Notes: generated by a model not told the origin, from the letters alone. Shown: positions 19,470 through 35,175, numbered from the stretch's first letter. The stretch: 36,804 nt of DNA from Clostridia bacterium (GCA_017500745.1 JAFVYE010000067.1:1-36804), one strand, 5' to 3'. Program-made: numbers and translations.

Positions 19470-22204
19470 TTAGTTATTTTCTTTGAGGGCCTTTTTTTCT
19501 GCCTTACGCTTTTCAACAAAGTTGGTGACAACCTTTGACACTTCAACAAAGGGGATTACAGTTGCGCCAAGTGCCATTGCAATGAAGAATTCCTTTGCGT
19601 CAATTGCTGTAAAGTCAAATGCTGTGTTGAGGCCGGGGGTGTAGATGACAAGGACGGTTGCAAGCAATGAGAATGCAAATGCGCCCCACATAAACCAATT
19701 TTGCTTTTTGAGCATGCTCTTGCTGAAGATTGAGTGGTTGATTGATCTTGCGTTGAATGCGTGGAACATCTCTGTCATTGACAAGGTCAAGAAAGCCATT
19801 GTCATGCCGTGGCCTGTGTCGTGAGCAAATGCTTCAAAGGTCATGGGCTCCCCTGCAAGATAGTGTCCAATAAAGAATGATGCAAGAGTCAAAAGTCCAA
19901 TAAACACGCCTTGGATGATGATGTTGACCCCAACGCCACCTGCAAAGATGCCTTCCTTTTCATTTCTGGGAGCACGGCGCATAAGGTCTGCTTCTGCCGT
20001 TTCTGTGCCAAGTGCAAGTGCAGGGAAAGTGTCTGTGATGAGGTTGATCCAAAGCAGGTGCATGGGCTTCAAGAGAGTGAAGCCACACATTGTTGCAATA
20101 AACACAGAAACCACTTCTGCAAGGTTGGATGCAAGGAGGAATTGAATTGCTTTGCGGATGTTGTCGTAGATGCGTCTGCCCTCTCCAACTGCGGTGACGA
20201 TTGTTGCAAAGTTGTCATCTTGGAGCACCATGTCTGCTGCGCCCTTTGTGACGTCTGTGCCTGTGATGCCCATGCCAATGCCGATGTCTGCTGACTTGAT
20301 GGAAGGTGCGTCATTGACGCCGTCCCCTGTCATTGCAGTAATCATGCCACGCTTCTTCCAAGTGTTGACAATGCGGACCTTGTGTTCAGGTTGAACACGT
20401 GCATACACAGAAAACTCCACGATTCTTTCATAAAATTCCTCATCACTCATCTCTGCCATTTCTGCGCCTGTAATTGCTTGTGATGCGTCTTGGATGATGC
20501 CAAGTTGCTTTGCAATTGCCACAGCTGTGTCAATGTGGTCGCCTGTGATCATGACTGCACGGATGCCTGCTGTCTTACACTCTGCAATTGCTGCTTGAAC
20601 TTCGGGACGGACAGGGTCAATCATGCCTGTGAGGCCAAGGAAGATGAGGTCCTTTTCAATGTCTTCGGGATTGACACTATCAGGAATTGCGTTGAGGGGC
20701 TTGTATGCTGCAGCAAGGACACGAAGTGCTTCGTTTGCCATTGCCTTGTTTGCACCAAGGATGTCTGTTCTGATGTCATCTGTGAGTTCAACCACTTGAC
20801 CGTTGATCTTTGCGTGGGTGCAACACTTCAAAAGTTCATCGGGAGCGCCCTTTGTGAATTGAACGTATGCGCCGTTGCCGTCATCGTGGATGGTTGACAT
20901 ACGCTTGCGCATGCTGTCAAAAGGTGCTTCCGCCACACGAGGATAGGTTTTGTCAAGGTCGGTTTTGTTTTGATTTTCCTTGTATGCAAAGTTGACAAGA
21001 GCACACTCTGTGGGCTCGCCAACTGCGTCAAAGGTTTCGGGGTCAAGAGTTGCGTCACTTGCTTGTGCCATTGCTCTTGCAATGAGAGCAACGTCATCGC
21101 CATAGGTGTCAACAACGGTCATCTTGTTTTGAGTGAGGGTGCCTGTCTTGTCAGAGCAGATGATTTGGGTGCAACCCAAGGTTTCAACTGCAGTAAGACG
21201 TTTGACAACTGCTTTTTTCTTTGCCATCTTTGTCATGCCCATTGAAAGCACGATTGTGACAACGGTTGCAAGGCCCTCTGGGATTGCGGCAACTGCCAAC
21301 GACACAGCGATGATAAAGCTGTCAAGGATGATTTCAAGTGCGCTGTTGCCAACAAGATTGTTGCGTTCCATGATGAGCTTGAATGCAAAATGAACACACA
21401 AATGCCAAGGACTGCAAAGCTCAAAATCTTTGAAAGCTTGTCAAGCTTCTTTTGAAGGGGAGTTGTTTCCTCTTTGGTTTGTGCAAGGACGTCTGCAATT
21501 TTGCCCATTTCGGTTTGCATGCCTGTTGCAACAACAACTGCCTTTGCTCTGCCGTAGACAATGGTGCTTCCCATATAGACCATATTCTTTCTGTCGCCAA
21601 GGGGAACGTCTTTGCCATCCTCTGCTGTGAGAGTGTCAACTTCCTTCTCGCTGGGCACAGACTCTCCTGTCAAAGCTGCCTCTTCTGCCTTTAAGGATGC
21701 AGATTCAATAAGACGGCAGTCTGCAGGCACAGAGTCCCCTGCTTCAAGGATGACTATATCGCCAACAACCAAGTCCTCGTTTTTGATGTGCTTGATGACA
21801 CCATCACGGATGACTTTACACGTTGATGCGGTCATCTCTTTCAAGGCCTCAATTGCCTTTTCGGCTCTGCCCTCTTGCACAACGCCAAGAACTGCGTTCA
21901 AGAGAACAACACCAATGATGATGAAGAACTCTGCAAGCTCCGTTGTGTCAAAGTGTCCCTTGCCTGTCATCACGGGGATGAGTGTTGTGATGAGACTGAT
22001 GAGCGCTGCGATGATCAAAACGATGATCATAGGGTTGACAAGTTGCATGAAGAATCTTTGGACCATTGAGATCTTTTTGCCTTCTGCCAGCTTGTTTTTG
22101 CCGTTTTGTTCAAGGCGAGCGTCTGCTTCGGATTGTGACAATCCGTTGTCGCAGGACTTTACTTCTTCCAAGACAGCGTTGCTGTCAAAAAGATAGTGTT
22201 TCAT
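19470..22204 (-). pseudogene. P2-type (Ca2+/Mn2+-like) cation-transporting ATPase, interrupted by a 1-nt frameshift
   Basis: Two overlapping ORFs (22204-21233 and 21401-19470) together encode one ATPase: N-terminal cation-ATPase domain, PEGL (AAIPEGLATV), DKTGTLT, TGDHIDTA, GDGVNDAPS. The frames join sensibly (…GICVFI|FAFKLIMERNN…) only if one base is added in the A4/T4 run at 21387-21390. Confidence 0.85.
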
Positions 22205-23038: not shown

Positions 23039-24121
23039 TTATTGTTTGTTTATGATTTTTCCCTCTTTCACTTCAAAGAGTTTTGCCCCATCTCCGTCAA
23101 ACTCTGTGCAAGTGAGGATTGTTTGAACTCCCTTTGTGGCTTCAAGCAAGATATCACGCCGTGTTTTGTCAAGCTCACTCAACACGTCGTCAAGGAGAAG
23201 GACGGGGGTTTCGCCTGTTTCTTGCTTGTACATTTCAACCTCTCCAAGCTTCATTGCAAGAGCTATAGTGCGCTGTTGTCCTTGAGAGGCAAATCGCCTT
23301 GCGTCAATGCCGTCAATTTCAATCTTGATGTCGTCACGATGAGGGCCTACGGTGCTATATCCAAGCTCCTTATCCTTTGCCCTTGATGCCAAAAGTGCGT
23401 CCTCAAGATTGCGCCTTATATCCCCTTCTGTTTTGACTGCGGTTTCATATGACAGCATCAGATTTTCCTTGCCAGAGCTGATTTTTCTGTGGCTTTGGCT
23501 TGCAAACTTGTTGAGTTCATTGACGTACTCCATACGCTTGCGGATTATGGTTGCGCCGTGCTCGGCAAGCCCAATATCCCACACGTCAAGCATGTCGTCA
23601 AGATTGTCTGCGTGCTTGCTCTCCTTCAAAAGATTGTTCTTTTGCTTCAACGTCTTGTTGTATTTTTGCAATGCAGTAAAATAGCTCTTTTGTTGTTGAG
23701 ATAGCCCAACGTCAAGAAAGCCCCTTCTCTCTGCGGGAGATTCCTTTACAAGCTTGAGTTCATCCGGCGAGAAGAAAACCACCCCAAGCACACCAAGCAG
23801 TTCTCCTGCTCTTGTCACGGGGATTCCGTCAATTGCCACTTTCTTTTTGCCAACCTCATCTATGAGGAGCAATATTGTGTGTTTGCGGAATTTTTTTTCA
23901 ACAGTAAGTGCCACCTTTGCCCTTGATGCGCCCATGCGGATAAGCTCTTTATCCTTGGTTGTGCGAGGGCTTCTAAGCAATGAGCAAACGTAAACAGACT
24001 CAAGCATATTGGTCTTTCCGCTGGCGTTTTTTCCATAAAGAACGTTGAGCCCACCGTCAAAATTGACTTGTTGGCTCTCGTAATTGCGGAAATTTGAAAG
24101 TGTAAGACCGATGATTTTCAT
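23039..24121 (-). CDS. recF: DNA replication and repair protein RecF
   Basis: Walker A GKNASGKTNMLE at the N-terminus, SMC-like signature FASQGQQRT, Walker B LLLDDVLSELD. 360 aa. Confidence 0.9.
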   Translation of the reverse strand: MKIIGLTLSNFRNYESQQVNFDGGLNVLYGKNASGKTNMLESVYVCSLLRSPRTTKDKELIRMGASRAKVALTVEKKFRKHTILLLIDEVGKKKVAIDGIPVTRAGELLGVLGVVFFSPDELKLVKESPAERRGFLDVGLSQQQKSYFTALQKYNKTLKQKNNLLKESKHADNLDDMLDVWDIGLAEHGATIIRKRMEYVNELNKFASQSHRKISSGKENLMLSYETAVKTEGDIRRNLEDALLASRAKDKELGYSTVGPHRDDIKIEIDGIDARRFASQGQQRTIALAMKLGEVEMYKQETGETPVLLLDDVLSELDKTRRDILLEATKGVQTILTCTEFDGDGAKLFEVKEGKIINKQ

Positions 24122-24127
24122 AAGTTT

Positions 24128-24156
24128 ATTATATATTAAAAATGCCTGTTTTTCAA
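24128..24156 (-). promoter_or_regulatory. Sigma-A promoter of recF with leaderless geometry
   Basis: On the minus strand: TTGAAA (24156-24151), 17 nt, TATAAT (24133-24128), 6 nt, ATG at 24121. No SD. Confidence 0.6.
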
Positions 24157-24323
24157 CAAGTTATGCCATATTATTTTGCATATAAAAAGAGAGATTTTTT
24201 CATTGTTGAAAACATATCTTGCTTTGCAAGACAAAAGAAAACCATAATGTCTGATGACAATTAATGCCGTAGGCAATTCATGACACAAAGTGTCAATTCA
24301 TGCAATCTTTGATTGTAATTTAT

Positions 24324-24352
24324 AAAAAAAGCACTCAACTGAGTGCTTTTTT
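24324..24352 (-). terminator. Intrinsic terminator of dnaA
   Basis: AGCACTC (24330-24336), loop AACT, GAGTGCT (24341-24347), flanked by A7 and T6. It begins 4 nt after the dnaA stop. Confidence 0.75.
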
Positions 24353-24355
24353 ATA

Positions 24356-25729
24356 TTATCTGTTGAGGATCATGTTTTTGATGTCTGCAACAACAATCTT
24401 CATGCGCTTGTCTGTCTTGATCATTTCGCTGATCTTATCTCTTGCATGGATGATGGTTGTGTGATCTCTGCCACCAAACATTTGACCTATTGTCACAAGA
24501 GGCAGGCCAAGCATTTCGGTGATGAGATAGATTGCAATCATGCGGGGTTCAACAATGTTTTTGGTCTTTTTCTTTGAAAACACGTCGTTTTTGGTGATGT
24601 TGAAATATCTGCACACCGTGTCAATGATGTCACTTGCGTCAAGAGTGTCTGTTTTGACCTCAATGAAGTCTTGCAGGGCCTCTCTTGCAAGATCCGTTGT
24701 GTCAATGACGTGGTTGGTCAGTGAACTGAAAAAGATGATTTTGTTGAGGAGTCCTTCAAGCTCACGGATGTTTGAGGTGCAGTTTTCTGCAATGAACGTG
24801 GCCACCTCATCGCTCAAACGGAACTTCTCTTGTGCTGCTTTTGTGCGAAGGATTGCAATGCGAGTTTCGGTGTCGGGCACGTTGATGTCAACCGTAAGCC
24901 CCCAAGCAAAACGTGTGCGCAGACGCTCTTCCAACGTGACAAGTTCCTTGGGAGAACGGTCTGATGTCAAGATGATTTGTTTGTTGGCTTGATAGAGGTC
25001 GTTGAAGATGTGGAAAAGTGCCTCTTGTGTCTGCTCTCTCTTGGCAAGAAATTGGACGTCATCCACCATGAGCACGTCACATGAACGATATTTTTCACGG
25101 AATTGATTGCTCTCTGTGTTGCTACGCTTCATGCTCATCTGCACAAATTCATTGACCATCTGCTCGCTGTTGACGTATACAACCTTTGTCTTGGGTGACT
25201 CCTTGTAGAGATGGTTGCCAATGGCGTGAAGAAGGTGGGTTTTGCCAAGGCCTACTCCGCTGTAAATGAAAAGAGGATTATACTTTCCGCCGGGGTTTTC
25301 TGCCACAGTTTTGGCTGCCATAAGAGCATAGTTGTTGGACTTGCCCATGACAAATTTGTCAAAGGTGTATCTGTCCACAAAAGGATTTTTGACCTTGACT
25401 TCGGCGGTTTTCTTTTTGTTGTCAACGATGATGCCACCACCGGGGAGAAACTCTGTTTGTTTGTTGAGATACTCTGCCTTTTTGTCGGGAGTGATGATTT
25501 CAACTGCGTTGACCGCCTTGTTGAGAGATTTGACAACCTCTGTGATGGTGCCAAGATATCTTTCATCAATGGTGCGTTTTGAAGATGCAGTAAGCGTGAC
25601 GAGCACAAAGGTGTCGTCTACAAAGCAAAGTGGCTCAAGCTTGTCAATCCAAACTTCATAGCTTATTGCTTGCATTATTTTTGACAATTCATTTTTGGCA
25701 TCCAGCCAAAATTCTTCTTTTCCAATCAT
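24356..25729 (-). CDS. dnaA: Chromosomal replication initiator DnaA
   Basis: AAA+ domain (NPLFIYSGVGLGKTHLLHAIG, VLMVDDVQFL, sensor motifs) and the C-terminal DNA-binding signature GGRDHTTIIHA. 457 aa. Confidence 0.97.
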   Translation of the reverse strand: MIGKEEFWLDAKNELSKIMQAISYEVWIDKLEPLCFVDDTFVLVTLTASSKRTIDERYLGTITEVVKSLNKAVNAVEIITPDKKAEYLNKQTEFLPGGGIIVDNKKKTAEVKVKNPFVDRYTFDKFVMGKSNNYALMAAKTVAENPGGKYNPLFIYSGVGLGKTHLLHAIGNHLYKESPKTKVVYVNSEQMVNEFVQMSMKRSNTESNQFREKYRSCDVLMVDDVQFLAKREQTQEALFHIFNDLYQANKQIILTSDRSPKELVTLEERLRTRFAWGLTVDINVPDTETRIAILRTKAAQEKFRLSDEVATFIAENCTSNIRELEGLLNKIIFFSSLTNHVIDTTDLAREALQDFIEVKTDTLDASDIIDTVCRYFNITKNDVFSKKKTKNIVEPRMIAIYLITEMLGLPLVTIGQMFGGRDHTTIIHARDKISEMIKTDKRMKIVVADIKNMILNR

Positions 25730-25736
25730 GGTTGAG

Positions 25737-25765
25737 ATTATAACTTATCCACATTTTTTGTGCAA
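25737..25765 (-). promoter_or_regulatory. dnaA promoter with a perfect DnaA box in the spacer and leaderless geometry
   Basis: On the minus strand: TTGCAC (25765-25760), 17-nt spacer containing TGTGGATAA (plus-strand TTATCCACA at 25745-25753), TATAAT (25742-25737), 7 nt, ATG at 25729. No SD. Confidence 0.65.
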
Positions 25766-25843
25766 CATACTTTTGAAAAATAAATATAAATGACTATATA
25801 TTGCGACCAAATATTTTTTGCCCCCAATTTTCTACAAAATTCT

Positions 25844-26446
25844 CTATCTTATTGGAGCATACTGGCCGGCATTCAGCCCCGTGTTTACAATCATAAAAAT
25901 GCCCATGGGGACAAAGATGATTAGGCAAACCGTGTTGACGACGTTTGCAATTTTTTCAAAGTTTTTGACATATCTTTGGGCCACAATCATCAAAAGCAAT
26001 CCAATGCATCCACCAAAGAAGTTGCATGCAAAATCCGTGCCGTCACATCCTCCGGTGCCCGTGTATAGCTGAGCCATCTCAAAGCAAATTGAAGTCACCA
26101 TAAACACCGCAACAGACACAATCACAACAAGGGAATATTTCATCTTTTTGAACATAAAAAGATATAAATATATCCCCATAGGGATATAAATCACCACGTT
26201 CAAAAGGTGGTCAAGGTTGAATTTATACGTGCCCTCTTGCACGGATTTTATCAAGGAGTAAAAAGGAATCCAATTGTTGCCCACTCTGCTTTCAAGGGGA
26301 AGTTTGAGCATATATTCTCTCAACTCGTACAGCCAATCCGAATTGAATTTGAGCCCAACAACCCAAACAAGACACCACAAATAAGTGACAAATATTGCCA
26401 CCAAAATTTTGAGATTGAGATTGTCTTGTTTGAATGGGTTTTTCAT
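25844..26446 (-). CDS. VanZ-like integral membrane protein
   Basis: 200 aa, multi-pass membrane protein. The NWIPFYS, NVVIYIPMGIY, CFEMAQ and DGTDFACNFFGG pattern fits the VanZ family as I remember it. Confidence 0.6.
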   Translation of the reverse strand: MKNPFKQDNLNLKILVAIFVTYLWCLVWVVGLKFNSDWLYELREYMLKLPLESRVGNNWIPFYSLIKSVQEGTYKFNLDHLLNVVIYIPMGIYLYLFMFKKMKYSLVVIVSVAVFMVTSICFEMAQLYTGTGGCDGTDFACNFFGGCIGLLLMIVAQRYVKNFEKIANVVNTVCLIIFVPMGIFMIVNTGLNAGQYAPIR

Positions 26447-26448
26447 CT

Positions 26449-26479
26449 TAAAAAATATAGCACACGCTGTGGTGTGCTA
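26449..26479 (-). terminator. Intrinsic terminator of dnaN
   Basis: TAGCACAC (26458-26465), 6-nt loop, GTGTGCTA (26472-26479). The minus strand then reads TATTTTTT. Confidence 0.7.
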
Positions 26480-26500
26480 TACCTATATTTGCATTTTTGT

Positions 26501-27601
26501 TTAGCCAATAACTCTGAGAGGAAGGATGAGATAGAGCCAGTTGTCTTGTTCGCCCTTGATAATGCCGGGGGCTGTTGATGAAGTGAAGTTCAATGTGACA
26601 AAAGGATCTTGGATTGCCTTCATACACTCGCTGATATACTTGCTGTTGAAGCCGATTGTAAGGTCCTTGCCTTTGAGTCCGATGGTGACTTTTTCATTGA
26701 TTTCGCCCTCTTCGCTGTGTGCGTTCAATGAAATTGAATCCTCTTTTATTTCCATCTTGACGTATGCTTTCTTTTCAGAGCGATTGATGAGGGCAACTCT
26801 TTCAATGCTGTTTTCAAATTGCTTTTTGTCAATGGTCACTTCGGTTGTAAAGAGGTCGGGGATGATCTTTTCATAGTTGATATAGTCCTCTGCGATGAGG
26901 CGTGAAACCATCTTTGTGTGGAAGAGGTCAACCATGATATAGCTTCTGTCAATGTAGACGGTCAAAGTTTCGTTTTCGTCATCAATGAGTGAGCAGAGCT
27001 CGTTCATGCTCTTTGCGGGCACAACAAGTTTGTCAATGATGCCGTTGTTTTGAATGGGCATTCTTGAAAGTGCAAGACGATAGCCGTCTGAAGCAACCCC
27101 TTCAAGCTCTGTTTCTTTGATGTTGAGGCAGATGCCACGGAGTGAAGGACGTGCTTCATCCATTGCAACGTTGAATTTGACCTTGCTGATGATTTCTTTA
27201 AGGTCTTTTTTGAGGATGATGAAGGAGTGCTCCTTTTCAACCTCCTTGAACACGGGATATTCATCTGCGTTGTAGCAATTGATAAACACCTCGCTGTCAA
27301 GATATTTCACAGACAATTTGTTTTGTGCGGTGCCGTCAAGCTCAATTTCTTCATCGCCAATACGCTTTGCGTAGTCTGCAAAGAGTTTGCCAGGGACAAC
27401 CACTTCGCCCTCAATGAGAACTTCTGCATTGACCTTCTTTTCAATGGCAAGTTCCAAGTCGGTTGCAAAAAGGGTGATGACGTCACCGATTGCGGTGATT
27501 TTGACACATTCCAAAATTGGATTGCTTCTCTTAATAGGCAATGCCTTTACAACTTTTTGAAGAGCATCTGCAAGCTCGTTTCCGTTCAAAATAACTTTCA
27601 T
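26501..27601 (-). CDS. dnaN: DNA polymerase III beta sliding clamp
   Basis: 366 aa, three-domain clamp pattern (LFATDLELAIE, GVASDGYRLA, C-terminal LILPLRV). Confidence 0.95.
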   Translation of the reverse strand: MKVILNGNELADALQKVVKALPIKRSNPILECVKITAIGDVITLFATDLELAIEKKVNAEVLIEGEVVVPGKLFADYAKRIGDEEIELDGTAQNKLSVKYLDSEVFINCYNADEYPVFKEVEKEHSFIILKKDLKEIISKVKFNVAMDEARPSLRGICLNIKETELEGVASDGYRLALSRMPIQNNGIIDKLVVPAKSMNELCSLIDDENETLTVYIDRSYIMVDLFHTKMVSRLIAEDYINYEKIIPDLFTTEVTIDKKQFENSIERVALINRSEKKAYVKMEIKEDSISLNAHSEEGEINEKVTIGLKGKDLTIGFNSKYISECMKAIQDPFVTLNFTSSTAPGIIKGEQDNWLYLILPLRVIG

Positions 27602-27979
27602 TTTTTCGCCTGTTTATTTTAATATTTTATTTTTATTTATTATACCATATATAAGCAATGTTGACAAGTGGAAAAGTCCAAAACTCCCCAACAAAAGCCA
27701 AAAAAGTGTTGTTTATCCCCATCAAAAACATCAGCAAAATAAGCAAAAACACAAGTGTGTTATGTTGACAACTTTTTGTGGATTTCCCTATTTTGTCCCC
27801 AAGTTTAAAAGGGTTGTTCACAACGTCCTATCTATAGGGCGACAATGACCAATATATTGCGACAAAATTTGCAAGTCAAAAAATAATAAAAAAAAAAGAT
27901 GTGAAACAAATTGTGAAACTTATTGCGATTGAATTTTTTTTGTGTTATTTTATTTATATACCCCCAAAGGAGAATGGCT
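27602..27979. other. Candidate oriC-type region between divergent dnaN and parB
   Basis: AT-rich block 27611-27656. DnaA-box-like 9-mers: TTATCCCCA (27713-27721, 1 mismatch), TGTGGATTT (27777-27785, 2 mismatches), TTGTTCACA (27814-27822, 2 mismatches). A10 tract at 27889-27898. No perfect box. Confidence 0.3.
27639..27667 (-). promoter_or_regulatory. Sigma-A promoter of dnaN
   Basis: On the minus strand: TTGTCA (27667-27662), 17 nt, TATAAT (27644-27639). This gives an AT-rich leader of about 30 nt. Confidence 0.55.
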
Positions 27980-28858
27980 ATGGCAGAAAAAGGCGCAAGC
28001 AAGTTTAATGCTCTTTACACAGACCATGAGGAAAACGTTAAGGTTGAAATTGCAGGAGTCAACGCAATTGACGTAGACATCACTCTCATTGACAGAAACC
28101 CTGCTCAACCTCGTAAGACTTTCAACGAAGAGTCCCTTCGTGAAATGGCAACTTCTGTTGCAACCTACGGTGTTTTGCAACCTCTCCTCGTCACAGAGGA
28201 AAAGGGCAGATATCTTATCATCGCAGGCGAACGCCGTTTTAGAGCTGCATATATGGCAGGGCTCAAAAAAGTGCCCGTAATCGTGAGAGAACTCACAAGC
28301 CAACAAATTGCAGAAATCTCTCTCATTGAAAACTTGCACCGTGAGGACCTCAACGCAATTGAAGCTGCAGAGGGCATGCGTGAGCTTATGGAAAACCACA
28401 ATCTCACCCAAGAAGGTGTGGCAGGTCGCATTGGCAAATCACGCCCCTACGTCACCAACACACTTCGCCTCCTTCAACTGCCCAAGGAAGTCACAGACAT
28501 GGTCAAGGAAGGACGCCTCTCTCCCGGCCATGCAAGAGCGCTCATCTCCATTGACGACAAAGAGTATCTCATCCAACTTGCAAAGCAGGCCTGTGACAGT
28601 CACCTTTCAGTCCGTGATCTTGAAACAAAAGTTCGTCTTTACTTCACAAGAAAAACAATCCCAGTCGGCCCCAGAAAACAACCTCTCCCCATTGAGCTTA
28701 AAGAGATGGTTGGCGATATGAAGCGTGTGTTTGCAACAAAGGTTAAACTTCTTGGCAACGAAAACAAAGGACGCATCTGCATTGACTATTTCAACAAGGA
28801 CGATCTTGACAGAATCCACGAAATCATTCAACGCCTCAAATACGAAGAAAAACTCTAA
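27980..28858 (+). CDS. parB: ParB/Spo0J-family partition protein
   Basis: AGGAGA (27968-27973) lies 6 nt before the ATG at 27980. ParB motifs present: LQPLLV, GERRFRAA, IENLHREDLN, and the HTH LTQEGVAGRIGKSRPYVTNTLRLL. It could formally be a Noc paralog. Confidence 0.85.
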   Translation: MAEKGASKFNALYTDHEENVKVEIAGVNAIDVDITLIDRNPAQPRKTFNEESLREMATSVATYGVLQPLLVTEEKGRYLIIAGERRFRAAYMAGLKKVPVIVRELTSQQIAEISLIENLHREDLNAIEAAEGMRELMENHNLTQEGVAGRIGKSRPYVTNTLRLLQLPKEVTDMVKEGRLSPGHARALISIDDKEYLIQLAKQACDSHLSVRDLETKVRLYFTRKTIPVGPRKQPLPIELKEMVGDMKRVFATKVKLLGNENKGRICIDYFNKDDLDRIHEIIQRLKYEEKL

Positions 28859-32105: not shown

Positions 32106-32534
32106 ATGGAAAGAATCACATCATTCAACATTGATCACAACGTGCTGACTCCAGGCATATACCTCAACCGTGTGGATGGCAACGTGTTTACATATGACCT
32201 TCGTTTCAAAGCACCAAACAAAGGGGATTATCTCCACACAGCAGGCATGCACACCGTGGAACATCTCTTTGCAACGGTTGTCCGCAACAGCCCCTACAAA
32301 GACAAGGTTGTTTATTTTGGACCTATGGGATGCAGAACTGGTTTTTATCTCCTACTCTTTGACACCCCTGACATCAACGATGCAAAGCGCATCGTCACGG
32401 AGTGTGTTGAAAAATGTCTTGAACTCAACTCAATCCCCGGATCCAAAAAGATTGAGTGTGGCAACTACCGCTCACACAACCTTGCAGATGCCAAAAAGGA
32501 GCTGACAGCATATCTTGGAGTCCTCAAAAGATAA
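32106..32534 (+). CDS. luxS: S-ribosylhomocysteine lyase
   Basis: The metal-binding HTVEH motif and the GPMGCRTGFY block typical of LuxS. The start is trimmed to MERITSF. Confidence 0.9.
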   Translation: MERITSFNIDHNVLTPGIYLNRVDGNVFTYDLRFKAPNKGDYLHTAGMHTVEHLFATVVRNSPYKDKVVYFGPMGCRTGFYLLLFDTPDINDAKRIVTECVEKCLELNSIPGSKKIECGNYRSHNLADAKKELTAYLGVLKR

Positions 32535-32600
32535 CAATCCAAACAAAGACAAATCAAACAATTTTCTATAAATTGCAAAAACAAAAATATAGAAAAATCA

Positions 32601-32626
32601 AAAGCCGAGCAAAAGCTCGGTTTTAT
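32601..32626 (+). terminator. Intrinsic terminator after luxS
   Basis: AGCCGAGC (32603-32610), loop AAAA, GCTCGG (32615-32620), then TTTTATTATT. Confidence 0.7.
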
Positions 32627-32630
32627 TATT

Positions 32631-32663
32631 GCCAAAACATCGCCAAAACATTGCCAAAATCAC
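32631..32663 (+). repeat. Tandem array A: three copies of an 11-nt unit, GCCAAAACAT(N)
   Basis: Copies start at 32631, 32642 and 32653. Confidence 0.8.
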
Positions 32664-32664
32664 A

Positions 32665-32777
32665 CCCCCTAAAATACTAACTCCCCAAAATACTATTCCC
32701 CTAAAATACTATTCCCCTAAAATACTAACTCCCTATAATACTAATTCCCCCAAATACTAACTCCCCAAAATACAATC
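32665..32777 (+). repeat. Tandem array B: seven copies of a 15-18 nt unit, CCCC(T)AAAATACTAAYT
   Basis: Units start at 32665, 32683, 32698, 32714, 32731, 32747 and 32763. The line 32701-32760 contains no G at all. Confidence 0.9.
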
Positions 32778-32844
32778 AAACTCTCTGTTGTATAAATCAG
32801 CACTCTACCACACAAATAGACCACACCTTTGCTACGTCACGTAA

Positions 32845-33150
32845 CCTACAGCCATAACATACTCCCACAACCCCTAAATACCCTATCAGCCATAAACACC
32901 CTATCATCTATAAACACTCTATTAGCTATAACACGCTCTATCAGCTATACACACTTTCTCAGTCCTAAACACTCTCACAGTTCTACATACTCCAACAACC
33001 CCTAATACCCTCTCAGCCACAACACGCTCTCAGCTACAACACGCTCTCAGCCATAACACGTTCACAACCCCTAAAACCCTATCAACCATAACACACTCTA
33101 TCAGCTAATAAACCACTCTCACAGCTCTACATACTCCCACAACTCACCCC
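32845..33150 (+). repeat. Tandem array C: about 13 degenerate copies of a roughly 17-nt unit, CTMTCAGCYAYAACACG, interspersed with CCCACAACCCCTAAATA-type elements
   Basis: Example run: CTCTCAGCCACAACACG CTCTCAGCTACAACACG CTCTCAGCCATAACACG at 33010-33060. The interspersed element recurs near 32863, 32991, 33063 and 33135, which indicates a higher-order repeat. Confidence 0.8.
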
Positions 33151-33174
33151 GCCCCACAACCATTAGTGCCCCAC

Positions 33175-33254
33175 AACTCAACGCACTCACGCAACTCAAC
33201 GCAACTGAACGCACTCACGCAACTCAACGCACTCACGCAACTCAACGAATTCAC
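33175..33254 (+). repeat. Tandem array D: about four copies of an 18-nt unit, AACTCAACGC+ACTCACGC
   Basis: Alternating 10-nt and 8-nt subunits can be read directly at 33175-33248. Confidence 0.85.
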
Positions 33255-33485
33255 ATAATCCCTAACAACAACCAAAAACAACAAAATCTACTATTCTAAT
33301 TGATCCCACCACTTTCAACGTATAATCAAATTCATTTTCTATAAAACAATAAAAACAAATATATAAAAAAAACAAAATAGAAACCATAAATAACAATCAA
33401 GCATTTATAAATACGGTCATAAGAATAAACAAAAGTGCAAATGTAAAATTTTCTATTCAAGAGGAAACCAAACAAACAAAATAAA

Positions 33486-33501
33486 TGTTTTACGTGAAAC
33501 A
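33486..33501. promoter_or_regulatory. parS-like site (1 mismatch)
   Basis: TGTTTTACGTGAAACA compared with the canonical TGTTNCACGTGAAACA. Confidence 0.7.
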
Positions 33502-33900
33502 TTTTACTATGTTTTGTAATTTGGCATTTAATAGAAGAATGAAATGAGCCAAACAAAACCGCCAAATTCTGCTCAAAATCCTGTCAAAAACGATGCGAAA
33601 AAAGGCGAATAAACCCTCATAAAAAGGAAAAATAAAACAATAGAAAAACTGCATAAAGCTCAACAGAGGTTTAAAAAGCAAAACTGGTCAATAACAATAG
33701 CAAGTACGTGCAAAAAAAACTTAACAAATTTAAAGGAAAAGTTAGCCAAAAATGTTTCACAAAGGAATTTGCGGGAAAAACTCCTCAAAAATAAGCAGGG
33801 ATGTGGCCAAAGCCGACCAATTTGTCAAGAAATCCACAAAAATTATGCATTTTCAAGCCGAAAAACCAGCAAAAGAAACGCAAAAATCAAATAAAACAAA

Positions 33901-33916
33901 GGATTCACGAGAAACA
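33901..33916. promoter_or_regulatory. Degenerate parS-like site (3 mismatches)
   Basis: GGATTCACGAGAAACA. Confidence 0.3.
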
Positions 33917-33950
33917 TCTCCGAAGACCTTAAAATCGTCCAAAAAATATA

Positions 33951-33966
33951 TGTTTCACGTGGAACA
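33951..33966. promoter_or_regulatory. parS site, exact match to the consensus
   Basis: TGTTTCACGTGGAACA is the exact reverse complement of TGTTCCACGTGAAACA. Confidence 0.85.
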
Positions 33967-33983
33967 ATGGTCGGATGGGTGTG

Positions 33984-33999
33984 TGTTTCATGTGAAACA
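33984..33999. promoter_or_regulatory. parS-like site (1 mismatch)
   Basis: TGTTTCATGTGAAACA, 18 bp from the perfect site. Confidence 0.7.
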
Positions 34000-34015
34000 A
34001 AAACGCCTTAAAAGT

Positions 34016-34067
34016 GCCCAAAAATAGCCAAAAACAGCCATTTTTGATGGTTTTTGGGCTATTTTTG
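34016..34067. repeat. Imperfect inverted repeat at the A-rich to T-rich switch point
   Basis: CAAAAATAGCCAAAAAC (34019-34035) against the reverse complement of GTTTTTGGGCTATTTTTG (34050-34067). There is one indel and a 14-nt spacer. Confidence 0.7.
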
Positions 34068-34221
34068 ACCTATGAAAAATAATTTTTCGGCTTTTCCTCA
34101 TCTAATTTTTTGGCCTCAAAAATCGGTCTTTCCCCATTGAAATTTGGGGGTCTTTTGTTTCGCAAAAATACTAATAAAAATTATTAGTTTCACAATTATT
34201 TTATCTTATAATAAAAAAACG

Positions 34222-34285
34222 GTTTTTTAGGCGTTTTTTAGGCATATTTTAGGTGTTTATTAGGTTTTTTTGGGCTGTTTTCAGC
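34222..34285 (+). repeat. Tandem array E: 5-6 copies of an 11-nt unit, GTTTTTTAGGC, roughly the reverse complement of array A
   Basis: Units start at 34222, 34233, 34244, 34255, 34266 and 34276. Confidence 0.75.
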
Positions 34286-34517
34286 ATGTGTGTAGTGTTT
34301 TTTTACTTAAATTTATGCTTTATTTGTGGTATTTTACAAGATTTAATTTTTATTTTTTATCTGACTTTTGCTCTATTTTAACCTTTTTTATTATATTTTT
34401 GGCATTCTTACTGCGATATTGATCAATTCTGTATTACCACGTTGATGTAAATGCAACGGTCCCTTGCAGATGAGCCCAGCAATGTTACTTTATTGATTAC
34501 GCATAAACAAAATAACA

Positions 34518-34546
34518 TTGATATTTTGAGGGTTGTTTGATATAAT
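34518..34546 (+). promoter_or_regulatory. Near-consensus sigma-A promoter
   Basis: TTGATA (34518-34523), 17 nt, TG-extended TATAAT (34541-34546). It lies about 185 nt upstream of the kinase ATG. Confidence 0.6.
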
Positions 34547-34640
34547 CAAGCCGGTGTCACATAAAACAATGGCTTTGTCCATGTAAATTTTGGCTGCTTT
34601 TGCCAATGATAAATGTGGTAAAAAGACAGATTGTTTTGTG

Positions 34641-34663
34641 TTTACTTAACTGAGTTAAGTAAA
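34641..34663. repeat. Palindrome copy 1: TTTACTTAAC-TGA-GTTAAGTAAA
   Basis: Perfect 10-bp arms. The arms plus the trailing AG are identical to the copy at 35154-35176. Confidence 0.85.
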
Positions 34664-34731
34664 AGTTCTTTGGCAATTATGATTCTTGACGATTTTGCGT
34701 CATTATAAGACTGTTTTTGGGGTTGAATGCT

Positions 34732-35175
34732 ATGTTGATTGCAATCATTGGTGAAAACTGCGTTGGCAAATCTACGCTTGCAAAGGAATTGGCCAGTCAT
34801 TTTCCGTCCAAAATATTTGTGGGCAAGGACTTTTTGCGCCTTGAAAGAAATCCGTCCGTCGCAAAGCAGACCTTTCAAAAAATGTTGGCACAATCGGTTT
34901 GTGGCGAGAACTTGATTTTTGTCATCTCTGAAAAAGAGCATATTGACCTTTTGCCGGAGGGCGCACTTAGGATTTTGCTCACTGCCGATCTTGACGTCAT
35001 CAAAGAGAGATTTAAGGATCGCATGAGGGGATTTTTGCCTCCCCCTGTGGAGAAAATGCTTGAACGCAACCACGGCACTTTTGACAGCGTAAAGTGTGAT
35101 TTTTGTCTTGAAAGTGGCAAATATGATATAAATAGCGTTTTAGAATCTTTAAATTTACTTAACTTTGTTAAGTAA
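34732..35175 (+). CDS. Small P-loop kinase-like protein (cytidylate-kinase-like/AAA fold)
   Basis: Walker A IIGENCVGKST at the N-terminus, about 147 aa. The ATG at 34732 is preferred over the TTG at 34717. Confidence 0.6.
   Translation: MLIAIIGENCVGKSTLAKELASHFPSKIFVGKDFLRLERNPSVAKQTFQKMLAQSVCGENLIFVISEKEHIDLLPEGALRILLTADLDVIKERFKDRMRGFLPPPVEKMLERNHGTFDSVKCDFCLESGKYDINSVLESLNLLNFVK

Follow-up and report, generated by a model that had tools for sequence, protein, structure and literature searches.

A gene-free tract with a parS cluster and mirror-image composition downstream of luxS in Clostridia: a possible origin-proximal centromere

Why should a bacterium keep more than 2 kb of DNA free of genes close to its replication and partition genes? 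The question is raised by a 36,804-nucleotide stretch from a Clostridia bacterium (GCA_017500745.1 JAFVYE010000067.1:1-36804, hereafter the window), whose lineage we take to be uncultured gut Clostridia, and in which 2197 bp (32535-34731, hereafter the tract) separate the stop codon of luxS from the next credible start. An initial annotation, made from the sequence alone, had described the tract as free of open reading frames (ORFs), had listed seven features within it and had suggested a composite centromere or an unconventional origin. All seven features are present where it had placed them. The gene-free tract is real and is kept in related gut Clostridia, and we lean, with somewhat better than even confidence, towards reading it as an origin-proximal ParB/parS centromere that sits in a selected, bent, gene-free pad, with an additional factor probably involved.

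Between the luxS stop (32534) and the start at 34732, the longest ORFs comprise 91, 77 and 63 amino acids, and none of the three is kept as an ORF in the relatives. Similarity of the tract to its relatives in tblastx searches extends over all six frames, which points to conservation of the DNA and not of an encoded protein. A hidden or frameshifted gene, raised by the initial annotation as something that could explain the region, was ruled out on these grounds and because pseudogene remnants are lacking; moreover, no remnant of the proteins encoded at the equivalent place in relatives was detected in the tract. Among the Rfam 15 covariance models, the sole window match at or above the gathering score is a tRNA (139-211), the tract giving only sub-threshold chance hits. 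A known RNA family was therefore rejected, and the consensus fold of the conserved part of the tract merely pairs parS palindromes, and A-tracts with T-tracts. A plasmid or phage origin was likewise dismissed, as plasmid and phage collections hold no sequence similar to the tract.

Relatives were found by a LuxS-based scan of species-representative genomes, which returned 11 close relatives (LuxS 72-91% identical), most of which share the order recF-dnaA-dnaN-parB-rsmG-pfs-luxS. Five of them have a complete tract (L004, L015, L009, L006 and L012) and, together with the window, form the six genomes of all comparisons of tract properties below. By sequence comparison and synteny, a gene-free stretch of 1.6-3.4 kb occupies the same place in all five, so that the absence from relatives that the initial annotation had considered does not apply: it measures 2.5 kb in L009, 2.7 kb in L012, about 1.6 kb in L004 and L015 (after an inserted 188-aa gene) and 3.4 kb in L006 (after three inserted genes). 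The inserted gene of L004 (10764-11330) and L015 (11120-11692) encodes 188-190 amino acids without NCBIfam match, lies between luxS and the parS region and has no counterpart in the window. By BLASTN, the relatives resemble the window only within 33880-34265, at 67-76% identity, and outside this segment no similarity is detectable even to genomes whose LuxS is 90% identical. Within it, the alignment keeps a parS doublet, A-tract units that flip to T-tract units at the same column, invariant strings and a parS half-site.

The partition sites and the gene for their presumed binding protein are the following:

33486-33501: isolated parS TGTTTTACGTGAAACA, one mismatch from TGTTTCACGTGAAACA
33901-33916: degenerate parS, three mismatches
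33951-33966 and 33984-33999: parS doublet, each site one mismatch from TGTTTCACGTGAAACA, starts 33 bp apart
27923-28858, + strand: parB, outside the tract, its product being the presumed binder of the parS sites

Measured against the 16-bp palindrome TGTTNCACGTGAAACA, three sites differ at one position and one at three; these four matches compare with 0.45 expected, and none of 100 shuffles reached four. The three near-consensus sites of the initial annotation (33486, 33951, 33984) hold up, and they are joined by the weak site at 33901 and a half-site at 34187-34193. Around the isolated upstream parS a wider palindrome, AATGTTT..AAACATT (AATGTTTCACGTGAAACATT), is conserved in relatives, the alignment column of the weak 33901 site holds a better parS in L004, L015 and L006, and the spacing of the doublet is identical in L004, L015, L009 and L006. 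Overall, parS sites stand just downstream of luxS in six relatives, four of which have the doublet.

ParB is encoded 3.7 kb from the tract and contains the Pfam domains ParB_N and HTH_ParB. It scores 188.9 bits against TIGR00180 (cut-off 58.45), remains below the cut-off of the Noc model and carries the cytidine triphosphate (CTP) motif GERRFRA, and is, judged by these sequence signatures, a canonical CTP-type ParB. Two direct parS half-sites GTGAAAC, 12 nt apart (27901-27919), lie just upstream of its start and may constitute a ParB operator.

Doublets of this kind are not peculiar to the clade. A metagenome scan with the doublet pattern (17-nt spacer), used solely as a background set, returned at least 120 unrelated contigs (L061-L180) with exact doublets from diverse environments and taxa, usually near parB or rsmG; none from this clade was among the matches listed. 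Among the matches listed, 52 unrelated doublets could be scored; the gap free of ORFs around them measures about 180 bp at the median and never exceeds 1416 bp, compared with 2107 bp in the window, and in 54 cases among the matches listed the doublet lies within an ORF of at least 100 aa. One contig (L061) has three parS doublets within 250 bp, inside a 1.4-kb ORF-free gap.

What surrounds the doublet in the window is organised around a point of symmetry, and the elements concerned are:

32631-32659, + strand: 11-nt array GCCAAAACATC, 2.6 copies, 94% matches
33260-34040: A-rich block, 48% A
33700-34040, + strand: left arm of helically phased A-tracts (GCCnAAAA-type units), a strand-polarised motif
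34019-34034 and 34052-34067: dyad, a 16-nt inverted repeat, 94% complementary
34041-34420, + strand: T-rich right arm with phased T-tracts, 50% T, about 30% GC
34068-34195, + strand: conserved block with CTTTCCCCATTGAAA (34128-34142), GTTTCGCAAAAAT (34157-34169) and the half-site GTTTCAC (34187-34193)
34222-34281, + strand: mirror 11-nt array GTTTTTTAGGC, 5.5 copies, 74% matches

Exactly at the dyad the AT skew switches from +0.39 to -0.36 and A-tracts become T-tracts. In all six genomes both GC and AT skew change sign at this switch, the + strand being A+C-rich to its left and G+T-rich to its right; the inverted repeat at a strand-composition switch reported by the initial annotation is found at 34019-34067 and its switch is conserved. 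The dyad folds, as single-stranded DNA, at -14.8 kcal/mol (z = -4.3), and its pairing is kept via two-sided, compensatory changes at alignment columns 158/203 and 159/202. In the conserved block, CTTTCCCCATTGAAA and GTTTCGCAAAAAT are invariant strings in the alignment of relatives; a terminator-like hairpin at 34131-34150 was rejected as a conserved element since its right arm is not conserved, which leaves the sequence CTTTCCCCATTGAAA itself. The block overlaps the 50-bp duplex of lowest stability in the window (34165-34214, 125 bp from the dyad), and the least stable 100-bp duplex is at 34298. Further along, CCATGTAAAtTTT occurs once in the right arm of the window (34579-34600) and three times in L009 (12181-12320), there within a 52-nt repeat.

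The arms are also periodic. The power of AA/TT periodicity reaches 13.5 at 11.25 bp in the left arm and 25.8 at 10.75 bp in the right arm; at about 10.5-10.75 bp it amounts to 14-15 in L004 and L015 and to 31.6 in L009, values far above the 3.7 +/- 1.7 of random 1160-nt windows used as controls. Taken as a whole, the window shows 10.5-bp phasing weakly above the controls. In the Bolshoy-Trifonov wedge model the tract holds 60-100% of the top-1% positions of predicted curvature of each locus, with the peak at the switch in the six genomes, and within the window bends are predicted at 33818, at 34056 (the tract maximum) and near 34250. The Fourier periodicity result is independent of the wedge parameters.

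The 11-nt array and its mirror image, both of which the initial annotation had recognised, could also be taken for the iterons of a second, plasmid-type centromere (ParR/ParG/omega), bound by a small ribbon-helix-helix protein encoded elsewhere. Two oppositely oriented sets of 10-11-nt units around a central region of curved DNA would fit this, as in R1 parC. However, the units are loose, the 5.5-copy array matching at 74% (the 2.6-copy array at 94%), and their sequence is not conserved between genomes, the phasing of A-tracts alone being kept among relatives. No parM, parR or small adaptor gene lies beside the tract, which is flanked by luxS and a kinase-like AAA gene, and no plasmid record shows similarity to it. 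We consider iterons of this type highly improbable.

A further element, missed by the initial annotation, is the 8-mer TTTTCTAT. It occurs 31 times in the six tracts (14.1 kb), in every one of the six genomes, against 8 copies in 113.8 kb of flanking DNA, and dinucleotide shuffles of the tracts predict 1.3. It is often found near a parS, in both orientations and within the extended pattern kTTTTCTATwwTTTT. All five exact copies of the window fall inside the tract:

32562-32569 (+ strand) and 32589-32596 (- strand): inverted TTTTCTAT pair, just after the luxS stop
33335 (+ strand), 33449 (+ strand) and 33640 (- strand): further TTTTCTAT copies in the A-rich arm, within 33335-33647
About 33377, - strand: GTTTCTAT, also in the A-rich arm

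A full-text literature search for TTTTCTAT returned nothing relevant. A CodY box at 32560-32574 was considered and dropped, as only that single copy fits (13 of 15 positions).

How could these elements act together? In the centromere reading that we favour, the three good parS sites and the weak one would serve the CTP-type ParB encoded 3.7 kb away. ParB dimers would be loaded at parS, where they would close into CTP clamps, and from there slide onto the two bent arms, whose mirror-image composition is centred on the dyad beside the doublet. The pad, of at least 2 kb, would be deliberately gene-free, and the sliding clamps and SMC would consequently meet no transcribing RNA polymerase on its arms. 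The phased A-tracts and the dyad might impart a static fold on the loading site, which could help the arms to meet in a compact partition complex and could aid SMC loading, in a role comparable to that of IHF at P1 parS or of the curved parC for ParR. TTTTCTAT would be the site of a second DNA-binding factor, for which an organiser of the origin region of the RacA/ram or RicO/ricS type is, by analogy, one possibility.

Several points weigh against this reading. No parA is found next to parB within the window. Phasing is weak in L006 and L012, which indicates that strict 10.5-bp phasing is not universal in the clade, and the predicted curvature, unlike the Fourier result, depends on the wedge parameters entered. 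ParB sliding does not explain the mirror G/C and A/T skew of the arms. The identity between L004 and L015, about 91% in the tract against 87.4% at the 4-fold sites of flanking genes, offers modest sequence evidence for selection, and these 4-fold sites are themselves under strong codon bias. Finally, what the sequences show directly is the sites with their conservation and spacing, the parB gene and its motifs, the periodicity, the skew flip, the enrichment of TTTTCTAT and the lack of coding; ParB binding, ParB sliding, any role of the curvature and a factor at TTTTCTAT are inferred.

The arrangement of parB and parA varies within the clade. The window shares with L004, L015 and L009 a parB that is inverted to the + strand and has no parA next to it. 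In L005-L008, which share one gene layout, it lies on the - strand beside an ORF of 255-270 aa, of which only that of L006 was confirmed to encode a ParA-type ATPase; the layout recurs in L011 and L013, where the ORF has 251-259 aa. The 10.5-bp phasing is much stronger in the relatives without adjacent parA (L004, L015 and L009) than in L006, which keeps it.

It might also be argued that, apart from parS, the tract is non-functional and consists of decayed or rearranged DNA and satellite expansions at a place where insertions and deletions are tolerated. The lack of similarity outside 33880-34265 even at 90% LuxS identity would agree with this, as would the turnover of content, since L004 and L015 contain an inserted 188-aa gene, L006 three inserted genes, L007 and L008 repeats of 69 nt, and the window tandem arrays of its own. 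Against it stand the persistence across the clade of a gene-free stretch of 1.6-3.4 kb, in spite of the usual bias of bacteria towards deletion, the conservation of curvature, skew flip and TTTTCTAT where the sequence itself is not conserved, a tract that is no more diverged between L004 and L015 than 4-fold sites, and the absence of pseudogene remnants. Non-functionality beyond parS is, in our judgement, very unlikely.

The left part of the tract and its outer edges contain the remaining features, which bear on the question of transcription:

32605-32628, + strand: intrinsic terminator hairpin of luxS with a T-run, which also scores as a terminator on the - strand
32640-33260, + strand: G-poor, C-rich block (A 36%, C 38%, G 6%, T 21%)
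34518-34546, + strand: promoter-like TTGATA-17-TATAAT with an upstream TG, 11 of 12 positions

Over the G-poor block the GC skew is -0.64 and -0.62 in two 500-nt windows. Ten of the 11 tandem-repeat rows of the entire window fall inside the tract, and the initial annotation had described the block as some 600 bp of G-depleted repeats with a period of about 17 nt; the repeats are there, yet they form not a single family of that length but several, with units of 16 nt (6.7 copies, 32667-32773), 18 nt (5.6 copies, 32875-32975), 17 nt (3 copies, 33010-33060) and 18/28 nt (33174-33247), on which a higher-order repeat of about 128-144 nt is superimposed. These repeats make up most of the organisation that the initial annotation had described. 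As a component of a conserved composite element they do not survive comparison: the 16-18-nt G-poor arrays are absent from every relative examined and peculiar to this genome. G-poverty is present without such repeats in L009 and is mirrored on both arms in L006, and L004 and L015 are without a G-poor block. In view of L009, the 16-18-nt satellites look like recent slippage expansions in an arm that was already G-poor, and would not represent conserved functional units. The most conspicuous feature of the tract is, as a caution, also the least conserved.

The assembly itself finds support at both ends of the tract, where short metagenome contigs from other samples match its first 324 nt and last 255 nt at 100%. 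One of them breaks at 32858, where the higher-order repeats start, so the copy numbers of the interior repeats are those of this assembly alone. A different repeat family is found at the same place directly downstream of luxS, at contig ends, in L007 (10713-11013) and L008 (7220-7393), with 69-nt units in 4.3 and 2.5 copies. A G-quadruplex on the - strand of the 16-nt array was considered and discarded, since the loops between its GGGG runs, at 12 nt, exceed what a stable canonical structure allows.

Composition of this sort could alternatively result from transcription and not from a protein-DNA architecture. In one variant, the C-rich, G-poor, unstructured arms would be Rho-loading zones that halt transcripts heading toward the parS complex; in the other, non-coding RNAs would run outward from the centre and deamination of the non-template strand would drive the skew, an example being a C-poor RNA of about 680 nt that would start at a weak promoter on the - strand (33318-33290) and end at the luxS terminator, which is bidirectional. 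RNA with the + strand sequence of 32640-33260 is nearly unstructured, with a minimum free energy of -30.7 kcal/mol over 621 nt and a C:G ratio of about 6, and so has the composition of a Rho utilisation (rut) site, namely C in excess of G in an unstructured RNA. G is scarce on the inward-reading strand, in the left arm for the window and L009 and in both arms for L006. The window and L009 also have weak leftward promoter-like sites where the G-poor block ends on the right, and the luxS hairpin, an equivalent of which follows luxS in L009, scores as a terminator on both strands.

However, promoter scans in three genomes gave no excess of promoter-like hits over shuffles, for which reason no transcription units can be claimed, and these scans do not discriminate between the two variants; the skew agrees equally well with outward transcription plus deamination of the non-template strand and with a Rho-loading insulator. 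The arms are moreover without conserved sequence or structure and without an Rfam match, the G-poor block is missing from L004 and L015, and L006 has no inward-reading gene on the right side. An origin of the mirror composition in transcription therefore appears unlikely to us, and it would be compatible with the centromere reading, not an alternative to it. The promoter-like site that the initial annotation had taken for a consensus outward promoter is present at 34518-34546, and most simply it would be the promoter of the kinase-like gene downstream, which starts at 34732 and which it probably serves.

If the tract is a centromere, does it also include the origin of replication? The genes concerned were called from Pfam and NCBIfam scans of the window:

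23039-24121, - strand: recF
24356-25729, - strand: dnaA
Between dnaA and dnaN: VanZ-like gene
26501-27601, - strand: dnaN
27602-27922: dnaN-parB spacer, 321 bp, outside the tract and 4.6 kb away, where DnaA-box-like sites are most densely clustered in the window and which includes a stretch of almost only A+T
Between parB and luxS, in this order: rsmG (- strand), an MFS transporter gene (- strand) and an MTA/SAH-nucleosidase-like gene (+ strand)
32106-32534, + strand: luxS, its stop at 32534 being the left edge of the tract
34732-35175, + strand: small AAA kinase-like gene, the first credible start to the right of the tract
Beyond the kinase-like gene: a 2'-5' RNA-ligase-like gene (+ strand), then a MazG-like gene (- strand)

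The tract is separated from dnaN and dnaA by 4.9-8.2 kb in conserved synteny, and is origin-proximal with respect to a presumed origin; the distances to parB, dnaN and dnaA given by the initial annotation were correct. The usual dnaA-dnaN order is reversed, with dnaN upstream of dnaA on the same strand (dnaN, in some genomes a VanZ-like gene, dnaA, recF; 23039-27601 in the window, and also in L004, L009 and L006), and this reversal is conserved across the clade.

Within the tract no DnaA box (TTWTNCACA) is found with one mismatch or fewer, and at two or fewer there are 7 against 5.9 expected. The dnaN-parB spacer instead contains the maximum of DnaA-box-like sites of the window (27.6-28.0 kb; 7-8 per 400 bp against a mean of 1.6), and relatives have 2-3 good boxes in this spacer and a perfect box just upstream of dnaA. 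A strict DnaA-trio run, with the example motif taken from PMC7561715, is likewise absent from the window. A candidate at 33686-33706 on the - strand (TTGCTATTGTTATTGACC), the only run of 5/6 YTR in the window, was rejected as unconserved and not strictly YTA. The least stable 50-mers of the window lie at 34165, 27612 and 33321, low stability alone being no proof of unwinding. When the absence of boxes in the tract, the cluster in the spacer and the lack of a trio are set against the low-stability duplexes and the skew flip, the sequence makes the dnaN-parB spacer the more likely position of oriC.

The opposite view would place the start of bidirectional replication at the dyad (about 34040), as a box-poor origin fused to the centromere in which the A+T-rich conserved block and the right arm unwind. 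The flip of GC and AT skew there, seen in six genomes, has the direction that most bacterial origins show. The window's duplexes of lowest stability over 50 bp (34165) and 100 bp (34298) are inside the tract beside invariant sequence, and in L005-L008 the genes recF, dnaA, dnaN, parB, parA and rsmG and that of the transporter are all oriented leftward, pointing away from the tract side. This is countered by DnaA boxes that are at chance level in the tract and have their maximum in the dnaN-parB spacer, by the lack of a strict trio run, by genes to the right of the tract that are not mainly on the + strand (8 against 13 on the - strand) and by 4-fold-site skews that do not fit. On the presumed lagging side, in addition, A exceeds T, a sign opposite to the pattern of Firmicutes with PolC, and this too counts against it. 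We regard an origin at the dyad as improbable.

A more far-reaching version, in our view quite unlikely, would make the tract a self-contained origin-and-centromere unit, in which replication or obligatory divergent transcription from the dyad at about 34040, without a DnaA-box cluster, would yield the mirror skew. The parS doublet would assemble a dedicated organising complex there together with the bent arms and the TTTTCTAT sites, and the boxes near dnaN and dnaA would be purely regulatory. Placement of the origin by GC skew at 4-fold sites (three zones, five genomes) was attempted and abandoned, as it gave contradictory results in which the same few orthologues were counted repeatedly; such skews are uninformative here because all genes strongly prefer C-ending codons. 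C is preferred over G at third codon positions of the coding strand in any gene orientation, with a third-position GC skew down to -0.47, so replication-related skew is masked. Of the two proposals of the initial annotation, then, the centromere is supported, in that the parS cluster, its spacing, the switch, the A-tract arrays and the gene-free size recur syntenically, and the unconventional origin is left without DnaA-box support. Elsewhere in the window, a P-type cation ATPase is split into two ORFs that overlap by about 170 nt (21233-22204 with the N-terminal domains, 19470-21401 with the remainder), which reflects either a frameshift or a sequencing error in 19470-22204.

Returning to the centromere reading, a chromosomal parS is commonly regarded as a self-standing 16-bp site, to which the surrounding DNA is of no importance. 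This clade, in contrast, keeps a pad of about 2 kb or more around parS gene-free, bent and compositionally mirror-symmetric despite turnover of its sequence, and with an enriched extra motif. If the arms are functional, selection would act on the shape of the DNA around parS as part of a bacterial centromere, with implications for the folding of ParB condensates and for SMC loading.

Altogether, the tract shares traits with several known systems. A typical rut region spans about 80 nt. The G-poor block would resemble it as a long C-rich, G-poor and unstructured RNA if transcribed toward parS, whereas its length of about 600 nt is far greater and it is made of tandem repeats. In clostridial oriC, subregions have 5-19 DnaA boxes, and a DnaA-trio adjoins the unwinding element (PMC7561715). 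Like the oriC of B. subtilis or C. difficile, the tract is non-coding, A+T-rich and close to dnaA and dnaN, and it has a segment predicted to melt easily and a skew change; unlike them, it is without a DnaA-box cluster and a DnaA-trio, its box-like counterpart being in the dnaN-parB spacer. In RacA/ram of B. subtilis, a motif system tethers the origin region. RicO/ricS of S. aureus similarly relies on an origin-proximal motif, with ricS sites that are all intergenic (bioRxiv 10.64898/2026.03.06.710092). TTTTCTAT is comparable, by analogy only, in being short and enriched in presumed origin-proximal DNA; it differs in sequence and is packed into about 2 kb, whereas ram and ricS are scattered over 600-700 kb.

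At plasmid centromeres, P1 parS is bent by IHF. R1 parC is strongly curved and comprises two sets of five 11-bp iterons, its ParR complex being folded back into a U shape (PMC2241845). The tract resembles both in being curved at a centromere, with repeats of 11-bp period in two sets around a centre; unlike parC (159 bp) or the single IHF site of P1, its predicted bend is intrinsic and spread over about 700 bp, and, in contrast to plasmid systems, its ParB is of a chromosomal, type Ia-like kind and neither ParR nor an IHF site was identified. The closest likeness is to the origin-proximal chromosomal parS clusters that ParB/Spo0J binds in Bacillus subtilis, Caulobacter, Myxococcus and Corynebacterium. 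The tract shares with them 16-bp palindromes one mismatch off, several within 500 bp, a position a few kb from parB, dnaA and dnaN, and a canonical ParB with HTH and GERRxR motifs. Those clusters lie mostly inside genes or short spacers; here no parA is adjacent in this genome, and the sites are set in some 2 kb or more of conserved gene-free DNA that also carries phased A-tracts, a dyad, an extra motif and a skew in mirror image.

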